A stretch of DNA of 64,000 nucleotides from positions 2,528,001 through 2,592,000 of the forward strand of contig OZ244999.1 of NCBI GenBank assembly GCA_965223265.1, written 5' to 3'. This DNA comes from Planctomycetota bacterium (lineage in GTDB: Bacteria > Planctomycetota > UBA8108 > SXIK01). A program made the translations under genes and the position numbers. The notes beneath the pieces were generated by a model. It saw only the letters and a program-made list of their open reading frames with translations. It had not been told where the DNA came from and searched no databases. Positions 51,070 through 58,652 of the stretch are shown here, piece by piece. Position 1 is the stretch's first letter. Every line of letters begins with the position of its first letter.

Positions 51070-52416
51070 CTACTTCGATGGCGTGGATTTCCTCGCCTGC
51101 CGTAGGCAGTAGAACTTCGTCAACGTGCGGATCAAGAGCCGGTCTCCTGCAATCGCGGGCGTTGCCATGCACATCTCCTCGAGAGGATTGGTGCGCACGA
51201 GTTCAAACTCAGGTCCTGCACGAACCACCAGTGTGTCGCCGTCCTCGTTCAGGCAGAAGATTTTGCCGTCGTAAGCCCACGGCGAAGCCGTGTACCCGGA
51301 ACCGGAGCCTAGCCGCTTCTTGCCGTAGACGAGCTTCCCTGTCTTCGCTTCATAGCAAGCGAGAAAGCCGCGGTCGAGAAGTGTGTAGAGATAGTCGCCG
51401 TAGACGATCGAACTCGGATTGTACGGGGCCGCCTTCGGCTGACTCCACGCGATCGAACGGTTAGCCGTCTCGCCGCTCCGAAGCGAGATGTCGCCTTGAC
51501 CGCCATGGCGGATCGCGTAAAGGGGGCGGTTATCATCGAGCACATATCCAGAGCTCACGAAGAGGAAGCCGTGTGCCGAGTAGGGCGTCGCGATCGTGAT
51601 GCTCGACATGCCCTTGAGCTCCCAGAGAAGCTGACCGGCGAGATCGTAAGATCGAACACGCCCTGAGCCTGCCGTGACGATTTCGACACCACCTTCGTGC
51701 TGCCAAACGTATGGTGTCGACCAGTTGCTCTTCTCGTTACGCGGAGTTTTCCATTTGATGTCACCGCTGCCAGCGTCGAGGGCGAGCAAGTACGACGCCT
51801 CCTCGTTGTCGTTGACGAGAATCAGCTGATCGTCGTGGATCACAGGCGAGGCCGCCGTGCCCCAGCCGTAGCGCAGGGGCATGGGGTCCAAACGATGGCT
51901 CCAAACGAGGTTGCCATCGAGATCGTAGGCAAACACGCCGACGTTGCCAAAGTAGGCGTAGATCCGTTTGCCATCCGTCACCGGAGTTTCCGACGCGTAC
52001 GTGTTTTTGATGTGGATCGGCGTTTCAGGCTTGGCCGCATGCGCCACCTTGTGCCATAGAGTTTGCCCGGACTCGAGATCGAAGCAGTAGACGACGTAGC
52101 GGTGTTCGTCCTGGAGCGGGTCCTTGCGATTGCCGCCGAAGTAGAGGCCTTTCTTTGGATCATGATTCTTGCCGGCGCTCACGGCGCTCAGGAGGAACGC
52201 CTTCTGTCCCCAAACGACGGGGCTGGACCAGCTGCGACCTGGCACGTCCACGGCCCATGCGACGTTCGTCTGAGTGTCCCAAACGTGCGGAAGTCCGGCG
52301 TTCGTGGCGACACCTCGCGACTGTGGGCCACGGAATTGGGGCCAGTGATCTTCCGCAGCGGACCCATGGTTAGCACAGCAGAAGAAGCACACGAAGAGCA
52401 GCGAACGGCGGTTCAT
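51070..52416 (-). CDS. PQQ-binding-like beta-propeller (BamB-like) secreted protein
   Basis: Signal peptide, WPQFRGP, WSSPVVWG, NTYASETPVTDG, WGTAASP, YTASPW, MATPAIA. Confidence 0.9.
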   Translation of the reverse strand: MNRRSLLFVCFFCCANHGSAAEDHWPQFRGPQSRGVATNAGLPHVWDTQTNVAWAVDVPGRSWSSPVVWGQKAFLLSAVSAGKNHDPKKGLYFGGNRKDPLQDEHRYVVYCFDLESGQTLWHKVAHAAKPETPIHIKNTYASETPVTDGKRIYAYFGNVGVFAYDLDGNLVWSHRLDPMPLRYGWGTAASPVIHDDQLILVNDNEEASYLLALDAGSGDIKWKTPRNEKSNWSTPYVWQHEGGVEIVTAGSGRVRSYDLAGQLLWELKGMSSITIATPYSAHGFLFVSSGYVLDDNRPLYAIRHGGQGDISLRSGETANRSIAWSQPKAAPYNPSSIVYGDYLYTLLDRGFLACYEAKTGKLVYGKKRLGSGSGYTASPWAYDGKIFCLNEDGDTLVVRAGPEFELVRTNPLEEMCMATPAIAGDRLLIRTLTKFYCLRQARKSTPSK

Positions 52417-52618
52417 GACGCCTCCAAGTCGTTATCTGGGTTGGCCACTTGTCGTATCACACCTTATCGAGGTGCCGCGCGGTCGTCCACTCGAGTCCAT
52501 GGCGGTCAGCGGCGTCGGCGAGTTCGACGGGTCCCGTCGGTGCAGAAAAAAGAGCGCTTCATGCGAAGATTTCACCATTCCCGTCGAGAGGGGGCGTGCC
52601 GTGGGGCCCTTGCGTGAG

Positions 52619-53187
52619 TGCGTGTGCGTGTGCGTCTCCCAAAGTAGCAGGCACACTCCGTGTGCCGTCCGGTCTCGTGTGCGTGTGCGTGTGCGTCTCC
52701 CAAAGTAGCAGGCACACTCCGTGTGCCGTCCGGTCTCGTGTGCGTGTGCGTGTGCGTCTCCCAAAGTAGCAGGCACACTCCGTGTGCCGTCCGGTCTCGT
52801 GTGCGTGTGCGTGTGCGTCTCCCAAAGTAGCAGGCACACTCCGTGTGCCGTCCGGTCTCGTGTGCGTGTGCGTGTGCGTCTCCCAAAGTAGCAGGCACAC
52901 TCCGTGTGCCGTCCGGTCTCGTGTGCGTGTGCGTGTGCGTCTCCCAAAGTAGCAGGCACACTCCGTGTGCCGTCCGGTCTCGTGTGCGTGTGCGTGTGCG
53001 TCTCCCAAAGTAGCAGGCACACTCCGTGTGCCGTCCGGTCTCGTGTGCGTGTGCGTGTGCGTCTCCCAAAGTAGCAGGCACACTCCGTGTGCCGTCCGGT
53101 CTCGTGTGCGTGTGCGTGTGCGTCTCCCAAAGTAGCAGGCACACTCCGTGTGCCGTCCGGTCTCGTGTGCGTGTGCGTGTGCGTGCG
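52619..53187. repeat. Tandem array 1: nine identical 61-bp units with a GTAG-led REP-like hairpin
   Basis: Unit TGCGTGTGCGTGTGCGTCTCCCAAAGTAGCAGGCACACTCCGTGTGCCGTCCGGTCTCGTG; AAAGTAG at 52641, 52702, ... 53129 (61-bp period). Confidence 0.97.
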
Positions 53188-53355
53188 AGCTATGACACGG
53201 GTCACCGTACGGCGGCGGTTGAGTCGATGGTACGCCGTGCTCGAGCTTGTGAAGTCGAGCACACAATGCACCTCCAACCTTCCGCTGTCGTAAGTCCTTT
53301 CGGTGTAAGCCGACGTAATCTGACGAATCTTTGATACAACCCGGTCGATTTACCT

Positions 53356-55446
53356 TCATAGGTCGTCGAAGAGCGTCATCTGGTTCTTCGCGCAGCCCTC
53401 CTTAGGCGGGAATCGACCCGTCGCCTTGAGCGTCGCCACGAGGCTCCGGACTCCTGGGGAGTCCAGCTCGTGGCGAGAGACGCGCCAGGGGGCGAACTCG
53501 GCGACTTGGTTTTTCCTGATCAATCCTCGTTCGACAAGCGTACGTAATGCTATCGAGGAAACTCCTAGGTACTTGCTGGCGCCGTTCATCGACAACGCAT
53601 CATCGGAGGACTGCGCTGAATTGATACCGTTGTGTTTGCGAAATTCGGTCACCTTGTCTTTGGTCCACCGTGTGGTCGTGAGCCTTCGTCTGTTAAGCAC
53701 TAAGGCAATCTCGCTGTCACTATGCGCCGCGGCGCTGAGCCGCTTGATCAGCTCGAGCACCGAAACTTCCCTTGATGCCTTCGGAGAGGGGAATCGCAAC
53801 AGCTCGGAGGTAGAGTGTACGCCGCCCTTCCAGTGAATCGTCAATTCCAGGCGGCGACTTTGCCGATTGGATCCAACGAGCTCGCCGCTCTCCTTGATCA
53901 TGATCTCGTGAATCGCTGCTCGCAGCAGAGTCTTCTTCAGCCTGACATCAATCGTCGATCGCCAGACCAACTGGAAGTTCCGTGCGAGAGTCTCGAGACG
54001 TTTTCGCTCTGCGACAGTCAACGTCAATCTCGACGACTGCTGCTTGTGGAGTGTCTCCTTTGCCTCGGCAAGCCGCTGAAGCTTGTCGTTGAGACGTTTC
54101 TCGAGGTTGTCCGCAACAAGGCGATTCCTCGGATCGCACGCGTCGAACTGTTCGAATGCATGACTGGCGGCGTACTGCGCAGCCTCGATCTGCTGCTTCG
54201 CGTAGTTCAACTCGTCGGCTCGGCTCTTCTCGATCTGCTCGAACGCCCTGGTCGCAGCCTCGATCCCCGAGGAGTCAAGCGCTCGACACAACTGCTGCGC
54301 GACGATCGGGTCAACGCGACATGCCCCAACAGAGAGACAAATGCGTGAGTTCCCCTTTCGTGTGCCGTCGCAGTAATAGAAGGCCTTCTCGTATCGGTAC
54401 CGGACCTTCAGCTGATCGCCACAGTGACCACAACGCAACATCCCCGCCAGGAGAGCCTGGCCTTCCCGCGCGGCTCCTCGGTTGCCGTCGAGCCCTCTTC
54501 GCGGTCGATTCTGCGATAGCTTCTTCAAGTTCGCTTCGTACTCTGACCAATCGATGTAGGCTGGGTGATGGTCACGGATCATCACCCGAGCTTCACCAGG
54601 ATCTTGCCGACGTTCACGCTGTTTGACCAGCCTCCCATCGGCGATCTTGCTTGTCGTCCTTGAACGACCCCAAGCGTAGGCTCCAGCATAGGTCGGATTG
54701 ACCAGGAGGTTGTGTAGCGACTTGGCCGACGGCACCGCCCACCTGACCGTCTTGTTGCCCAAGCCCCGACTCGGAAACTCGATCCCCGCGTCTCGGTAAT
54801 GCAATGCGAGCTGTCGGGCACTACTGGAGCCACGGAAGTCCTGAAAGACACGGCGGATCGCGGTACGGATTCTCTCGTCGGGATCGAAGACAATCTCAGT
54901 GTCGTCGTAGACGTAGCCGATCGGTAACTGAATCCACAGCTCACCTCGCTTCGCTTTCGCCTGCTGACCTAGGCGCAATCGCAAGCGAATCGTCGCAAGC
55001 TCGGCTTCTGAGATCGAGCCACGGATGCCGATCAACAGTCTGTCGTTAGAGAGCGACAGATCGTAGACCTGCTCGGTGTCCGCGATCAGCGTATTGAAGT
55101 GCTGACAAAGCTCCATCAGTCGCGCCCAGTCCACCGAATTCCTCGACAATCGGGAAATCTCGAGACAGAAGATAATCCCGACTTCCCCGGCAATGACCCA
55201 GCTCTTCAGTTTCTCGAAGCCGGGGCGATCGACGAATCCAGAAGCCGACTCGCCGAGATCGTCCTCGATGAGAATCGGCTCGCGCCAGCCAAGATCGACC
55301 GCCTTGTGCCTCAGTTCGCGTTGCAGGCGCGTGCTCTCTTCGTTGTTCTTCACCTGTGTTGGCGACGATTGACGAATGTATACTACTGCCGCGCGCCTGA
55401 GGTGCTCGGTAGTGACGCCACCTGGATGATTGCTATCGATCCTCAT
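53356..55446 (-). CDS. Large serine recombinase (resolvase + recombinase + Zn ribbon + coiled coil + C-terminal HTH)
   Basis: AVVYIRQSS catalytic Ser, EDDLGESASG, EISRLSRN, LVNPTYAGAY, DHHPAYI, LLAGMLRCGHCG, YYC, IHWKGG. Confidence 0.93.
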   Translation of the reverse strand: MRIDSNHPGGVTTEHLRRAAVVYIRQSSPTQVKNNEESTRLQRELRHKAVDLGWREPILIEDDLGESASGFVDRPGFEKLKSWVIAGEVGIIFCLEISRLSRNSVDWARLMELCQHFNTLIADTEQVYDLSLSNDRLLIGIRGSISEAELATIRLRLRLGQQAKAKRGELWIQLPIGYVYDDTEIVFDPDERIRTAIRRVFQDFRGSSSARQLALHYRDAGIEFPSRGLGNKTVRWAVPSAKSLHNLLVNPTYAGAYAWGRSRTTSKIADGRLVKQRERRQDPGEARVMIRDHHPAYIDWSEYEANLKKLSQNRPRRGLDGNRGAAREGQALLAGMLRCGHCGDQLKVRYRYEKAFYYCDGTRKGNSRICLSVGACRVDPIVAQQLCRALDSSGIEAATRAFEQIEKSRADELNYAKQQIEAAQYAASHAFEQFDACDPRNRLVADNLEKRLNDKLQRLAEAKETLHKQQSSRLTLTVAERKRLETLARNFQLVWRSTIDVRLKKTLLRAAIHEIMIKESGELVGSNRQSRRLELTIHWKGGVHSTSELLRFPSPKASREVSVLELIKRLSAAAHSDSEIALVLNRRRLTTTRWTKDKVTEFRKHNGINSAQSSDDALSMNGASKYLGVSSIALRTLVERGLIRKNQVAEFAPWRVSRHELDSPGVRSLVATLKATGRFPPKEGCAKNQMTLFDDL

Positions 55447-55600
55447 CGTTCTCGCCCTCCACACCGTGGTTCTCGATGATCGCCTGCAGGAGAATCGCCA
55501 CTGCCCGAGCGATTTCCTCCCGCTCCTTCGCGCTCAGCACTGCGAGCACGCTTTGATCTTCCGGCGGCAAGAACGGTAGAGTAAGCTGCGTCCACACCAT
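55433..55600 (-). CDS. Small hypothetical protein of the LSR element
   Basis: GAGGAGG RBS; MVWTQLTLPF...EIARAVAILLQAII; end overlaps the LSR start. Confidence 0.6.
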   Translation of the reverse strand: MVWTQLTLPFLPPEDQSVLAVLSAKEREEIARAVAILLQAIIENHGVEGENDEDR

Positions 55601-55892
55601 CGTCCTCCTCCTTGGTTCGAGTTGGTTCTGAGTCAAGGATGGACGATGGTGCTTCTTGGAGTCGAGACTCTACGATCGCCGCAATGACGAGGAGCTCCTC
55701 CACGTCGATGTGGGGCGATCTACACAGCTCCACCCACATAGCGCTCTCCTCGGTCATCCAGCACGGCACCAAGAGCTGGCGCTTCTCGATTTGAACCAAG
55801 TAGCAGGGCGGTTCTCTCGAGGTCCGCCGAACGACCGGCAGAGAGCGTCCCGCAAGGGGGTGGTAGGGATAGAAGACCGTTACGGTCGTCAA
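55443..55892 (-). CDS. DUF5372/Y4bD-like accessory protein of the LSR element
   Basis: TVTVFYPYHPLAGRSLPV...LVPCWMT motif; true start uncertain and close to the element end. Confidence 0.6.
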   Translation of the reverse strand: MTTVTVFYPYHPLAGRSLPVVRRTSREPPCYLVQIEKRQLLVPCWMTEESAMWVELCRSPHIDVEELLVIAAIVESRLQEAPSSILDSEPTRTKEEDDGVDAAYSTVLAAGRSKRARSAEREGAGGNRSGSGDSPAGDHREPRCGGRER

Positions 55893-56046
55893 ACCAACAT
55901 CAGTGTGGGCTACCCGTGGTCAAGAGTCCCCTCGCTGCGCTCGGCGCTGCGCGCCCTTGACACCCACTCCGCTCCGCGTTGGGGGGTGGAGTACCGCCGC
56001 CCGGATGCGGTGGGCTCTTGAGTCACCTTCTCTTCGGAGGCTTCAC

Positions 56047-56370
56047 ATGCGTTTTATCGCTCTCGACGTCAGTCTCGGTTTGATCGGCGACTTGCGAGTC
56101 CCTTTAGCTCGACTTCGGCGTCTCGATCCGGACCTGCACCGGCAGATTCGGCGCGCTGCTTCTTCGGTGGCGCTCAATCTCTCAGAGGGAGCTGAACGCG
56201 CCGGCAAAAATCGCCAGCACCTCTTTCGCGTAGCGCGCGGTAGTGCGCGCGAGGTCGAAACGGCGCTTCGCGTCGCCCAGTCCTGGGGCGACCTGAAGCA
56301 CGACGACGTCGCGCGCGCTCTCAAGACGCTCGATCGACTGCTGGCGCTTCTTGGCGGGCTGACTCGCTGA
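56047..56370 (+). CDS. Four-helix-bundle protein (23S rRNA IVP / bAvd-like, TIGR02436-type)
   Basis: GGAGG RBS; DLHRQIRRAASSVALNLSEG...LFRVARGSAREVETAL signature; 107 aa. Confidence 0.9.
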   Translation: MRFIALDVSLGLIGDLRVPLARLRRLDPDLHRQIRRAASSVALNLSEGAERAGKNRQHLFRVARGSAREVETALRVAQSWGDLKHDDVARALKTLDRLLALLGGLTR

Positions 56371-56385
56371 GCATCACGTCCTGTG

Positions 56386-56409
56386 CGCCCGCCGCCTCCG
56401 TGGCGGGCG
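56386..56409 (+). terminator. GC-rich hairpin after the four-helix-bundle gene
   Basis: CGCCCGCC-GCCTCCGT-GGCGGGCG; no strong U-tract. Confidence 0.4.
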
Positions 56410-56442
56410 CAATCTCCTGCGTTCGAACGAAGCGAGAGCGCC

Positions 56443-57594
56443 TTCCAAAGTAGCAGGCACATGCCATGTGCCGTCCGTCTTGTGTGCGAGTGCGAGTGCG
56501 TGGGCCGACCAGCACTCTGTCTCTGGCTCCGTTTCCAAAGTAGCAGGCACATGCCATGTGCCGTCCGTCTTGTGTGCGAGTGCGTGGGCGAGTGCGAGTG
56601 CGTGGGCCGACCAGCACTCTGTCTCTGGCTCCGTTTCCAAAGTAGCAGGCACATGCCATGTGCCGTCCGTCTTGTGTGCGTGGGCGAGTGTAAGTGCGTG
56701 GGCCGACCAGCACTCTGTCTCTGGCTCCGTTTCCAAAGTAGCAGGCACATGCCATGTGCCGTCCGTCTTGTGTGCGTGGGCGAGTGTAAGTGCGTGGGCC
56801 GACCAGCACTCTGTCTCTGGCTCCGTTTCCAAAGTAGCAGGCACATGCCATGTGCCGTCCGTCTTGTGTGCGAGTGCGTGGGCGAGTGTAAGTGCGTGGG
56901 CCGACCAGCACTCTGTCTCTGGCTCCGTTTCCAAAGTAGCAGGCACATGCCATGTGCCGTCCGTCTTGTGTGCGAGTGCGTGGGCGAGTGTAAGTGCGTG
57001 GGCCGACCAGCACTCTGTCTCTGGCTCCGTTTCCAAAGTAGCAGGCACATGCCATGTGCCGTCCGTCTTGTGTGCGAGTGCGTGGGCGAGTGTAAGTGCG
57101 TGGGCCGACCAGCACTCTGTCTCTGGCTCCGTTTCCAAAGTAGCAGGCACATGCCATGTGCCGTCCGTCTTGTGTGCGAGTGCGAGTGCGTGGGCCGACC
57201 AGCACTCTGTCTCTGGCTCCGTTTCCAAAGTAGCAGGCACATGGCATGTGCCGTCCGTCTTGTGTGCGAGTGCGAGTGCGTGGGCCGACCAGCACTCTGT
57301 CTCTGGCTCCGTTTCCAAAGTAGCAGGCACATGCCATGTGCCGTCCGTCTTGTGTGCGAGTGCGAGTGCGTGGGCCGACCAGCACTCTGTCTCTGGCTCC
57401 GTTTCCAAAGTAGCAGGCACATGGCATGTGCCGTCCGTCTTGTGTGCGAGTGCGAGTGCGTGGGCTGACTAGCACTCTGTCTCTGGCTCCGTTTCCAAAG
57501 TAGCAGGCACATGGCATGTGCCGTCCGTCTTGTGTGCGAGTGCGTGGGCGAGTGTAAGTGCGTGGGCCGACCAGCACTCTGTCTCTGGCTCCGT
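56443..57594. repeat. Tandem array 2: twelve 90/96/102-bp units with the related GTAG-led hairpin
   Basis: AAAGTAGCAGGCACATG(C/G)CATGTGCCGTCCG at 56447, 56537, 56639, 56735, 56831, 56933, 57035, 57137, 57227, 57317, 57407, 57497; lengths differ by GTGCGA-like hexamers. Confidence 0.97.
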
Positions 57595-57667
57595 ATCTGC
57601 CTCTCGTTCTGTCTCTGGCTCTGTATCTGCCTCTGCCTCTGCTTCTGCTTCTGACTCTGCCTCTGAT
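57578..57667. repeat. Degenerate TCTGNN hexamer tract ending array 2
   Basis: tctgtc tctggc tccgta tctgcc ... tctgcc tctgct tctgct tctgac tctgcc tctgat. Confidence 0.75.
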
Positions 57668-57836
57668 CCGCGTGTCCCGAGAGCGTTCGAAATTTCTCGC
57701 AACCCATACCGAGCGTCGGGGTTTCAAGGAGTGGCCTGTGGTCGTCCTGACACTCTTCGTGCGCGACCAGGAGCGGGTTTGGGGCGCCCAGCGACTGCGG
57801 ACGCACAGGCATCTTCGGCGAAAGGAGAGACGGGAT

Positions 57837-58652
57837 ATGAAGAAGGGATTCAGTAAGCGGTGGGTCGTGTCCTTCGTTGCCGTGTTCACACTGCTCGGGG
57901 TGTTGGCTGAAATTCAGGAGGCCTTTGGGCATGATCGCGAGCGTCGACATCGCCATCGACTTCACTCTTGCCTCGTGATGGAGTTCGACGCCAACGGCGA
58001 CGGTGTGCTCTCCGAAGAAGAGAAAGCTGCCGCAATCGCTGCACGCGAGCAGGAACTCATCGAAACGTACGATACCGATGGTGACGGCGCCCTCTCCGAC
58101 GAGGAGAAAGCCGCCGCACGGGAGGACTTGGCTGCTCAGCGTGCAGCGCGCCGCGCAGCCCGTCTTGCCGAGATCGACACCGATGGCGACGGGACAGTAA
58201 GTGAAGAAGAGCTCGCCGCCGCACGTGCCGCGCGCCTCGCCGAGATTGACACTGACGGCGACGGGGAGATCAGCGACGAAGAGCGGGCGGCGGCACTTGC
58301 AGCGCGCTGCGAGGCGCGCCGCATGAGCGAGGATGACGAACAGGAAATGGTCGTGATCGAAGCCCTGACGCTCAGTCGCGATTTCGTGCGCGGTGATGCG
58401 AATAGCGACGGCGAGACGGATCTCTCCGACAGCGTGTTCGTGCTCAACTTCCTGTTTGTCTCTGGTGAATCACCCGTGTGCCTCGATGCCGCCGACGCGA
58501 ACGACGACGGTACCATCGACGTCGCGGATCCGATCCGGACGCTCAACGCACTCTTTATCAGTGGCGCTGAGCCGTTGCCGCCGCCAACCGTAGCCGCCGG
58601 TGCTGATCCGACGCTGGACGAGATCGATTGCGATGGCGGATTGAACAGCTGA
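57837..58652 (+). CDS. Secreted EF-hand protein with C-terminal dockerin-like domain
   Basis: AAGGAG RBS, signal peptide, four EF-hands (DANGDGVLSEEE, DTDGDGALSDEE, DTDGDGTVSEEE, DTDGDGEISDEE), FVRGDANSDG...CLDAADANDDG...DPTLD tail. Confidence 0.85.
   Translation: MKKGFSKRWVVSFVAVFTLLGVLAEIQEAFGHDRERRHRHRLHSCLVMEFDANGDGVLSEEEKAAAIAAREQELIETYDTDGDGALSDEEKAAAREDLAAQRAARRAARLAEIDTDGDGTVSEEELAAARAARLAEIDTDGDGEISDEERAAALAARCEARRMSEDDEQEMVVIEALTLSRDFVRGDANSDGETDLSDSVFVLNFLFVSGESPVCLDAADANDDGTIDVADPIRTLNALFISGAEPLPPPTVAAGADPTLDEIDCDGGLNS

Follow-up and report, generated by a model that had tools for sequence, protein, structure and literature searches.

Three kinds of described DNA come closest to what we found in a 64,000-nucleotide stretch of a planctomycetotal genome, hereafter the window. 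In the relevant sections of Nunvar et al. 2010 (PMC2817692) and Di Nocera et al. 2013 (PMC3733652), GTAG-headed REPs consist of a short GC-rich palindrome preceded 5' by a GT(A/G)G head, occur as hundreds of dispersed copies with compensatory stem changes and have a cognate Y1 transposase gene placed between inverted REPs, traits that recur here, the transposase gene in our case being RAYT-like. Small integrative elements of large serine recombinases (LSRs), including the multi-targeting ones, share with the element found here, within the part of Durrant et al. 2022 (PMC10083194) that treats them, a three-domain LSR and a conservative, site-specific insertion with no visible target duplication and a short core, which at our locus would be GT. 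The ORFs of 23S rRNA intervening sequences and the bAvd proteins of DGRs, in the portion of PMC10053308 devoted to them, belong to the same protein family as the four-helix-bundle (4HB) product of our locus, and their genes are likewise tied to a strong hairpin. An earlier note had put forward two hairpin arrays, a 4HB gene and a serine-recombinase element as a candidate new system. We found no evidence for a single multi-part system, and what had been proposed resolves into repeat DNA of known kinds: three separate selfish or multicopy kinds, namely REPs, a 4HB cassette and an LSR element, have piled up at the locus. With a probability of about three in four, the interval represents a single intergenic island of repeats built up in nested layers, each propagating independently. 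Within the window, the genes flanking the arrays encode a PQQ-propeller protein on one side and an EF-hand/dockerin protein on the other.

Array 1 (52618..53184, + strand) consists of nine head-to-tail 61-bp units (Tandem Repeats Finder: period 61, 9.3 copies, 100% matches, 52618-53184), in each of which a GTAG-headed member of the REP family with the stem GGCACAC/GTGTGCC is combined with (GTGCGT)3-type hexamers. Array 2 (56443..57594, + strand) comprises twelve head-to-tail units of 90, 96 or 102 bp (period 102, 12.0 copies, 94% matches, 56443-57594, the tail reading also as period 90), built from a REP with the stem GGCACATG/CATGTGCC, a variable number of GTGCGA/GTGGGC-type hexamers and a CTCTGTCTCTGGCTCCGT segment, the loop base being C in nine units and G in three. 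The motif CCAAAGTAGCAGGCACA-N5-TGTGCCGTCCG occurs 21 times in the window, in all 9 + 12 units and always on the + strand, and is absent from 100/100 dinucleotide-preserving shuffles; GTGCGT/GTGCGA-type hexamers link the units. The picture of two like-oriented arrays of 9 x 61 bp and 12 x 90-102 bp that share a hairpin motif and hexamer linkers was therefore borne out. Two other layouts were considered and rejected: an inverted-doublet REPIN arrangement, since all 21 units in the window lie on the + strand (inverted REP pairs about 39 bp apart are present elsewhere in the genome), and a CRISPR array, since the segments between hairpins are identical in array 1 and differ only in hexamer number in array 2. 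Short-read contigs from four public runs of one study bear on the assembly of the locus: in the three runs listing it, the 61-64 bp unitig of array 1 reached 4-9x the depth of the flanking contigs, crude values that nevertheless speak against array 1 being an assembly artefact. One contig join, from 57462 to 53164, falls in shared hexamers and is uninformative on joints between array 1 and array 2.

The hairpins belong to a large dispersed family. A genome-wide nhmmer profile search (E<=0.01) recovered about 382 copies, which group into 146 clusters; at least five copies are present in 20 of these, and the longest head-to-tail arrays reach 19-21 units. Simple word counts agree, a 17-mer with up to 2 mismatches occurring 177+138 times against 0+3 for the reversed control, and a 13-mer with up to 1 mismatch 351 times against 24. 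A perfect hairpin of at least 6 bp is present in 285/382 matches, with stems of 7-8 bp, and a GTAGCA head precedes the stem in 266 of these 285, which supports the assignment to the GTAG-headed REP class. The five main stem types are each perfectly complementary and differ by compensatory changes (ACAC/GTGT, 175 copies, plus 63 with one extra C:G pair; ACGC/GCGT, 22; ACTC/GAGT, 7; ACATG/CATGT, 16), and the stem covariation noticed between the two arrays is supported. It had also been stated that no RAYT, RT or cas gene is visible; this is correct for the interval 52619..57667, but a single intact RAYT-like tyrosine transposase gene is present 1.6 Mb away (G000 4206500-4207144). Its 215-aa ORF carries HVH and YIRDNP motifs and is the sole match to Y1_Tnp (PF01797) in the genome, with 27.3 bits against a cut-off of 23, while its best NCBIfam model is REP_Tyr_transpos (NF047646; E 3.6e-15, 56.1 bits, the equivalog cut-off being 80); by sequence it matched no PDB entry. 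Two + strand REPs lie about 75 and about 180 bp upstream of the gene, and eight − strand REPs follow downstream, starting about 45 bp away.

Between the arrays lies the 4HB gene (56047..56370, + strand), of the B1 subtype and one of 38 PF05635 matches in the genome, whose 107-aa product scores above both curated cut-offs of PF05635/TIGR02436 (51.8 bits against 33.8 and 52.3 against 24). Its closest solved relative is 2GSC (E 4e-6), an entry that holds five chains. The B-type cassette follows a plan of a structured leader of about 180 nt, the 107-aa 4HB gene and a terminal hairpin. In the window the leader is in two parts, the left one (53185..53249, + strand) being target DNA up to attL and the right one (55920..56046, + strand) comprising the hairpin apex and the 3' arm (...CAAGAGTCCCCTCGCTGCGCTCGGCGCTGCGCGCCCTTGAC...) to the start codon; GGCGGCGG in the left part pairs with CCGCCGCC beyond the LSR insertion. 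Intact paralogous leaders fold at -92 and -95 kcal/mol, and the 38 cassettes have a common leader hairpin apex, with stem changes that are compensatory. After the stop codon comes a GC-rich hairpin (GCGCCCGCC / GGCGGGCGC; 56385..56410, + strand), conserved in position in all B-type cassettes, and the locus ends in a (TCYGNN)n hexamer tract of class 2 (57577..57665, + strand), the usual downstream arm of these cassettes.

All 38 genes are found within hexamer microsatellite islands, whose tracts fall into the classes c1, (GCGWKD)n, and c2, (TCYGNH)n. Tracts flanking a cassette share the same strand, and in 108/121 islands with at least two tracts all lie on a single strand; mutually complementary, mirror-image arms were accordingly rejected. 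PF05635 genes are missing from about 60 islands with both hexamer classes and from many more with one class. The relative G007, which belongs to a different family within the order, shares the hairpin, the gene and the 6-7-nt arms but lacks the REP motif, and 6-7-nt arrays adjoin the leader at 14/14 of its loci. The conserved brackets of the gene family, both here and in G007, are 6-7 nt tandem tracts and not REP hairpins.

The third constituent is an LSR element of 2,670 bp (53250..55919, − strand), inserted in the 5' arm of the leader hairpin and one of six near-identical copies. It contains a large serine recombinase gene (53356..55464, − strand; 702 aa as listed, GTG start) with the Pfam domains Resolvase (71 bits), Recombinase (51) and Zn_ribbon_recom (26.4); XisF and Ccr models match it weakly, none reaching its cut-off. 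A 67-aa ORF (55433..55636, − strand), also within the element, immediately upstream of the LSR start and overlapping it, matched nothing in Pfam or NCBIfam and might, at a guess, encode a directionality factor. All six copies are 2,670 bp long and have the same two junctions, in the leader hairpin of a B-type cassette. A GT dinucleotide is shared by attL, attR and the empty paralogous sites, which are contiguous, and may represent the crossover core of the insertion. The six copies are about 100% identical over 2,670 bp, whereas the DNA outside is 70-90% identical; the left leader part of the window aligns at 70-90% identity with uninterrupted B-type leaders as well as with the DNA left of the other LSR copies. 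Because flanks that match uninterrupted paralogues are this much more diverged than the element they enclose, the element is, as judged from these alignments, a later and independent hit on the cassette. Its short-read depth was 4.6-7.6x that of the flank. Homing to a hairpin in a multicopy host cassette makes it behave like an insertion sequence.

Taken together, these data suggest an order in which a B-type PF05635 cassette, lying like all 38 copies between tracts of classes c1 and c2, forms the base layer. GTAG-headed REPs sit in the c1 tracts to the left and right of the cassette, sharing the strand of these tracts, and are probably served in trans by the sole intact RAYT-like gene; each REP would then have been amplified head to tail with adjacent arm DNA, possibly by slippage or unequal exchange between units, until 9 and 12 units were reached. 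Later the 2,670-bp IS-like element integrated, probably at a GT, within the 5' arm of the leader hairpin and divided the leader in two.

The first of two alternatives in the earlier note, a repeat-flanked 4HB cassette later hit by the LSR element, holds in outline, but not in taking the hairpin arrays as specific partners of the gene: the REP family numbers 382 copies spread over 146 clusters, and no 4HB gene lies within 1 kb of 14 of the 20 arrays of at least five copies. REPs and c1 tracts share a strand in 127/133 cases, and occupancy of hexamer tracts by REPs is equal near a cassette (16/42) and elsewhere (37/112; Fisher p=0.57, a rough value since paralogues are not independent samples). 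Against this independence stands a strong association of gene and REPs when hexamer tracts are not conditioned on: a REP cluster lies within 1 kb of 13/38 4HB genes against 1.4 expected (0/2000 random placements reach 13).

Among the other readings of the locus, the most far-reaching, which we regard as doubtful, takes the 4HB gene, its covarying leader hairpin and the short-period arms to be a self-propagating cassette without published precedent, whose protein would recognise the arms or the hairpin. REPs and the LSR would be secondary parasites, the former settling in the arms and the latter having evolved homing into the hairpin; the 38 loaded copies and dozens of empty arm islands could be read in this way. 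Less probable is that the B1 cassette is single-stranded cargo of the RAYT-like enzyme, with the upstream CACAC and downstream CACATG REPs as IS200/IS605-like ends, all on one strand, and the arrays as reiterated ends. REPs occur upstream in 14/20 B-type cassettes, nearly all in gene orientation, and all five B1 cassettes (that of the window and those at 4592970, 5649708, 5662765 and 6172976) have a REP on each side in gene orientation; measured from the Pfam match, these REPs keep to conserved positions near -320 and +82 to +125. Moreover, the CACATG stem variant occurs only 3' of B1 cassettes (16/16 genome sites), which indicates that REPs and cassette travel together, at least within B1, and the RAYT-like gene is intact. 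However, the remaining 33 cassettes, none of which is bracketed by REPs, multiplied all the same, REPs are missing from a B1-like cassette at 8820877, and G007 has the cassette family without this REP; likewise, similarity among B1 loci extends 23-60 bp beyond the downstream REP before it is lost in hypervariable hexamers, leaving no precise REP-defined end visible.

The main idea of the earlier note, which we consider decidedly unlikely, is that a pentamer-forming 4HB protein binds RNA or ssDNA of either the neighbouring repeats or the hairpin in its own leader, and thereby promotes repeat amplification or spread of the cassette. The five chains of 2GSC, the short-period repeat islands and the conserved, covarying leader hairpin at 38/38 genes, and the same design in G007 are consistent with such a nucleoprotein unit, but the many islands of one or two hexamer classes that are devoid of the gene, and a REP occupancy independent of it, argue against it. 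It is scarcely credible that the arrays serve the LSR as recombination sites, for example to invert or excise the segment between them or to control its copy number, as the sole support for this is the position of the element between two arrays at this one locus. Against it, the junctions of 6/6 copies lie inside the leader hairpin with no REP closer than 65 bp, REPs beside the other five copies number 0, 2, 2, 3 and 4 and in no case lie downstream of the gene, and distant relatives of the LSR sit on 2.6-2.9-kb contigs without an adjoining 4HB gene.

The nested repeat island brings together several features of more general interest. It provides a clean case, outside Proteobacteria, of REPs paired with a RAYT-like gene and arranged in head-to-tail arrays of great length, as well as an IS-like serine-recombinase element that homes to one hairpin and so offers a defined attB/attP pair. 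Likewise, a natural series of 38 copies of an uncharacterised PF05635 cassette becomes available, in which the leader hairpin and the hexamer arms suggest concrete candidate nucleic-acid ligands for PF05635 proteins.

In comparison with known RAYTs (NF047646, PF01797), the gene found here is alike in its HUH (HVH) and YIxxNP-type tyrosine motifs, its single intact copy and its inverted flanking REPs, but in its 215-aa product a long insert separates the N-terminal strand from the HUH motif, and the protein scores under the equivalog cut-off (56 against 80 bits). Relative to the REPs described in the sections cited above, long pure head-to-tail arrays are prominent here in place of alternating BIME or REPIN layouts, and the REPs are embedded in hexamer microsatellites and belong to a family confined to this genome among the 31 searched. 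Set against the LSR elements covered in that part of PMC10083194, ours measures just 2.67 kb (the LSR and one or two small ORFs), is present in six copies and homes to the hairpin of a multicopy host cassette. A 23S rRNA intervening sequence was rejected for the locus, which does not lie inside a 23S rRNA gene and has no Rfam match of any kind in 52400-57900, and a DGR bAvd role was rejected as well, each of the four RT (RVT_1) matches in the genome lying more than 100 kb from every 4HB gene. Compared with both, as the consulted portion of PMC10053308 presents them, the cassette differs in having its ORF after the hairpin, not in the loop, and in a copy number of 38.

The two hairpin arrays of the window are present as the earlier note had described them. 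Tandem Repeats Finder reported array 1 (52618–53184, + strand) with a period of 61, 9.3 copies and 100% matches, and array 2 (56443–57594, + strand) with a period of 102, 12 copies and 94% matches, its tail being also reported with period 90, while the motif common to both, which has a five-base variable centre, occurred 21 times in the window, on the + strand only, and in none of 100 dinucleotide-preserving shuffles. Between the arrays lie a gene for a three-domain large serine recombinase (LSR; 53356–55464, − strand) and a four-helix-bundle gene (56047–56370, + strand; PF05635/TIGR02436) coding for a protein of 107 aa, whose closest counterpart of solved structure is the five-chain entry 2GSC. 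Arrays, gene and recombinase are all real, yet they do not make up the single system that had been proposed. Rfam gave no match within 52400–57900 at E ≤ 1. To the right of this island, a gene for EF-hand repeats and a dockerin type I domain (57839–58652, + strand) contains a 72-bp tandem repeat at 58155–58307.

The arrays belong to a family of GTAG-headed hairpin repeats (REPs) found throughout the single 9.18-Mb contig of this genome (G000), of which the window covers 2528001–2592000. The 17-mer head of the repeat, with up to two mismatches, matched 177 + 138 times against 0 + 3 in the reversed control, and a 13-mer, one mismatch being allowed, gave 351 occurrences in 143 clusters, against 24 in the control. 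A profile built from these matches detected 382 REPs at E ≤ 0.01, distributed in 146 clusters that include 61 singletons, 42 pairs and 20 clusters of five or more copies. Pure head-to-tail arrays (period 53–160 bp) make up many of the clusters, the longest same-strand array having 19 units; another cluster of 19–21 units alternates in strand, and there are also inverted pairs with a spacing of about 39 bp. In 285 of the 382 matches the hairpin is perfect over 6 bp or more, and in 266 of these GTAGCA comes immediately before it. The stem covariation that had been pointed out between arrays 1 and 2 was borne out as a property of the entire family, since five complementary stem types are found across it: GGCACAC/GTGTGCC (175 cases), the same stem with an extra C:G pair (63), GGCACGC/GCGTGCC (22), GGCACATG/CATGTGCC (16) and GGCACTC/GAGTGCC (7). 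In none of 30 relatives did the REP motif rise above background.

Hexamer-based microsatellites are unusually frequent in this genome, periods 6, 12 and 18 accounting for 341, 408 and 209 of its 2,106 tandem-repeat rows. Two classes predominate, c1 (GCGWKD)n, with 251 tracts against 89 in the reversed genome, and c2 (TCYGNH)n, with 325 against 81. Grouping both classes with the REPs, the LSR elements and the cassettes (a leader hairpin plus the four-helix-bundle gene) defined 293 islands. These are strand-coherent, since all tracts share one strand in 108 of the 121 islands having two or more, so that the arms they provide are direct, and they contain 38 of the 38 cassettes, type B having the orientation of the hexamer strand and type A the opposite one; both hexamer classes occur without any cassette in at least 60 islands. 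In array 2 each unit consists of a REP, c1 and a c2-like segment, so that the entire arm was reiterated.

It is the MAG G007, a relative that belongs to the same order but to a different family, that indicates which of these repeats belong to the gene. The leader motif occurs there 6 + 12 times (control 0), arrays with a 6–7-nt period lie beside it at 14 of 14 fetched loci, and the four-helix-bundle gene then follows the leader wherever no contig end cuts the locus; the REP motif was not found in G007. Since arms and gene are present there and REPs are not, it is the short-period arms that form the conserved brackets of the four-helix-bundle gene, with the REPs as colonisers specific to G000. 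In G007 a contig end is no more than a few hundred bases away from many of the 18 leader motifs and 13 PF05635 matches. Short-read assemblies are evidently broken by the cassettes, and in MAGs the number of copies is probably underestimated.

An enrichment of REPs near four-helix-bundle genes, for which a test had been proposed, was observed in the raw counts, since a REP cluster lies within 1 kb of 13 of the 38 genes against 1.4 expected, a value that none of 2,000 random placements reached, and REPs occur upstream of 14 of the 20 B-type cassettes. No enrichment remained beyond that of the c1 tracts, with which REPs agree in strand (127 of 133 cases): near a cassette REPs occupy 16 of 42 tract regions, and away from one they occupy 37 of 112 (p = 0.57 by Fisher's test, the paralogues being non-independent samples). 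The raw association is thus real and is accounted for by the joint residence of genes and REPs in c1 tracts.

According to a minority reading, the REPs would act as IS200/IS605-like ends with the cassette as their cargo. In its favour is the B1 subfamily of type B, which comprises the window cassette and those at 4592970, 5649708, 5662765 and 6172976, all five with REPs on both sides in the gene orientation. The CACATG stem of array 2 has only 16 sites in the genome, all of them 3' of four B1 cassettes, so that the B1 REPs were duplicated along with the cassette. However, REPs are missing at one B1-like cassette (8820877), 33 cassettes multiplied without REPs on both sides, and the similarity among B1 members continues beyond the downstream REP into the hexamers.

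The genome has 38 PF05635 matches, 36 above the cut-off, which match length and alignment divided into 17 type A and 19 type B cassettes and two partial matches; one further type B copy, truncated at its 5' end, was missed by Pfam. Both types share a leader with an almost invariant apex. Its stem shows compensatory changes in type A (e.g. AACCGAAGCAGAG...CTCTGCTTCGGTT to AACCGAACGAGAG...CTCTCGTTCGGTT) and in type B (GGAACTGTCAAGGG...CCCTTGACAGTTCC to GGGGCAGTCAAGGG...CCCTTGACTGCCCC), and folding of intact leaders gave −92 and −95 kcal/mol. Rfam has no family for these leaders, the intact cassettes of G000 and G007 matching only RT-15 at chance level (19.6 bits versus a gathering score of 82). 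Seven convergent A/B pairs occur (G000:C1:9141161–9142969, 8302809–8304647, 7189138–7190907 and four further), three of which have a common 1.8-kb unit of about 92% identity, whose similarity stops in the hexamer tracts. Four sites (G000:C1:1008798, 5573714, 8664839 and 8743619) carry the leader apex without a Pfam-detectable gene and are probably cassette remnants. Among 300 other genomes of the phylum, a sample that did not include G007, the apex motif matched only G092 and G186, and the four-helix-bundle gene was absent at the matching loci of both. The genes are not accessories of diversity-generating retroelements, as the four RVT_1 matches of the genome all lie more than 100 kb from each listed four-helix-bundle gene.

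The suggestion that an LSR element struck the cassette later is well supported. The 2,670-bp element (53250–55919) is about 100% identical in DNA among its copies, whereas identity on both sides drops to 70–90% and the flanks align with uninterrupted B-type leaders, so that it is a later, independent insertion. Six copies encode identical proteins (100%), have the same junctions, and occupy six of the 20 B-type and none of the A-type cassettes; the five copies outside the window have 0–4 REPs nearby. GT, in the 5' arm of the leader hairpin, is the sole dinucleotide common to attL, attR and empty sites, from which we infer it to be the putative crossover core. Two LSR paralogues at 37% identity (G000:C1:6104550–6106112 and 2468728–2470290), with identical scores (E 4.3e-91), may mark a second multicopy element. 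A search of genome contigs found distant relatives at eight loci (32–46% identity), none with an adjacent four-helix-bundle gene, the profile matching the positive control only. Some lie on contigs of 2.6–2.9 kb, two of them (36–37% identity) taking up a whole contig each, of 2,893 bp in a Rhizobium genome and of 2,585 bp in a Geminicoccaceae MAG, which would fit a multicopy 2.7-kb element that breaks assemblies.

Among short-read contigs (four runs of one study), array 1 appears as a unitig of 61–64 bp, at 4–9 times the depth of the flanking contig in the three runs listing it; these crude figures fit a genuine multicopy array. A joint of 53219 to 55919 in DNA contigs is not an excision product of the window locus, because it includes 29 letters that match empty paralogous cassettes, and a CRISPR reading of the arrays was dropped for want of unique spacers.

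In the literature, supplements aside, no paper was found on planctomycete hexamer tracts, on repeat-armed PF05635 cassettes or on such an LSR element type; the element is an IS-like form of an already known kind. A whole-genome Pfam search gave one Y1_Tnp match above the cut-off, within a 215-aa ORF that has HVH and YIRDNP motifs and encodes a RAYT-like protein, the probable transposase of this REP family. Its top NCBIfam model was REP_Tyr_transpos (E 3.6e-15, 56 bits, under the equivalog cut-off of 80), a PDB sequence search returned no meaningful match, and two of the 30 relatives encode related proteins (51% and 31% identity). A second, fragmented copy (G000:C1:3515289–3520871), with a REP at 3520952, encodes residues 147–215 and 1–142 about 5 kb apart, an RVT_1 gene (3516453–3517118, one of four identical in the genome) sitting between the fragments. 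The intact ORF has + strand REPs just upstream and eight − strand REPs just downstream, the same inverted flanks that Nunvar et al. (PMC2817692) give as the mark of RAYT genes. Di Nocera et al. (PMC3733652) already describe GTAG repeats in the PVC superphylum, including head-tail dimers as well as large clusters that were tandemly reiterated along with the DNA flanking them. The arrays of the window are additional examples of REP clusters, a known kind of repeat.
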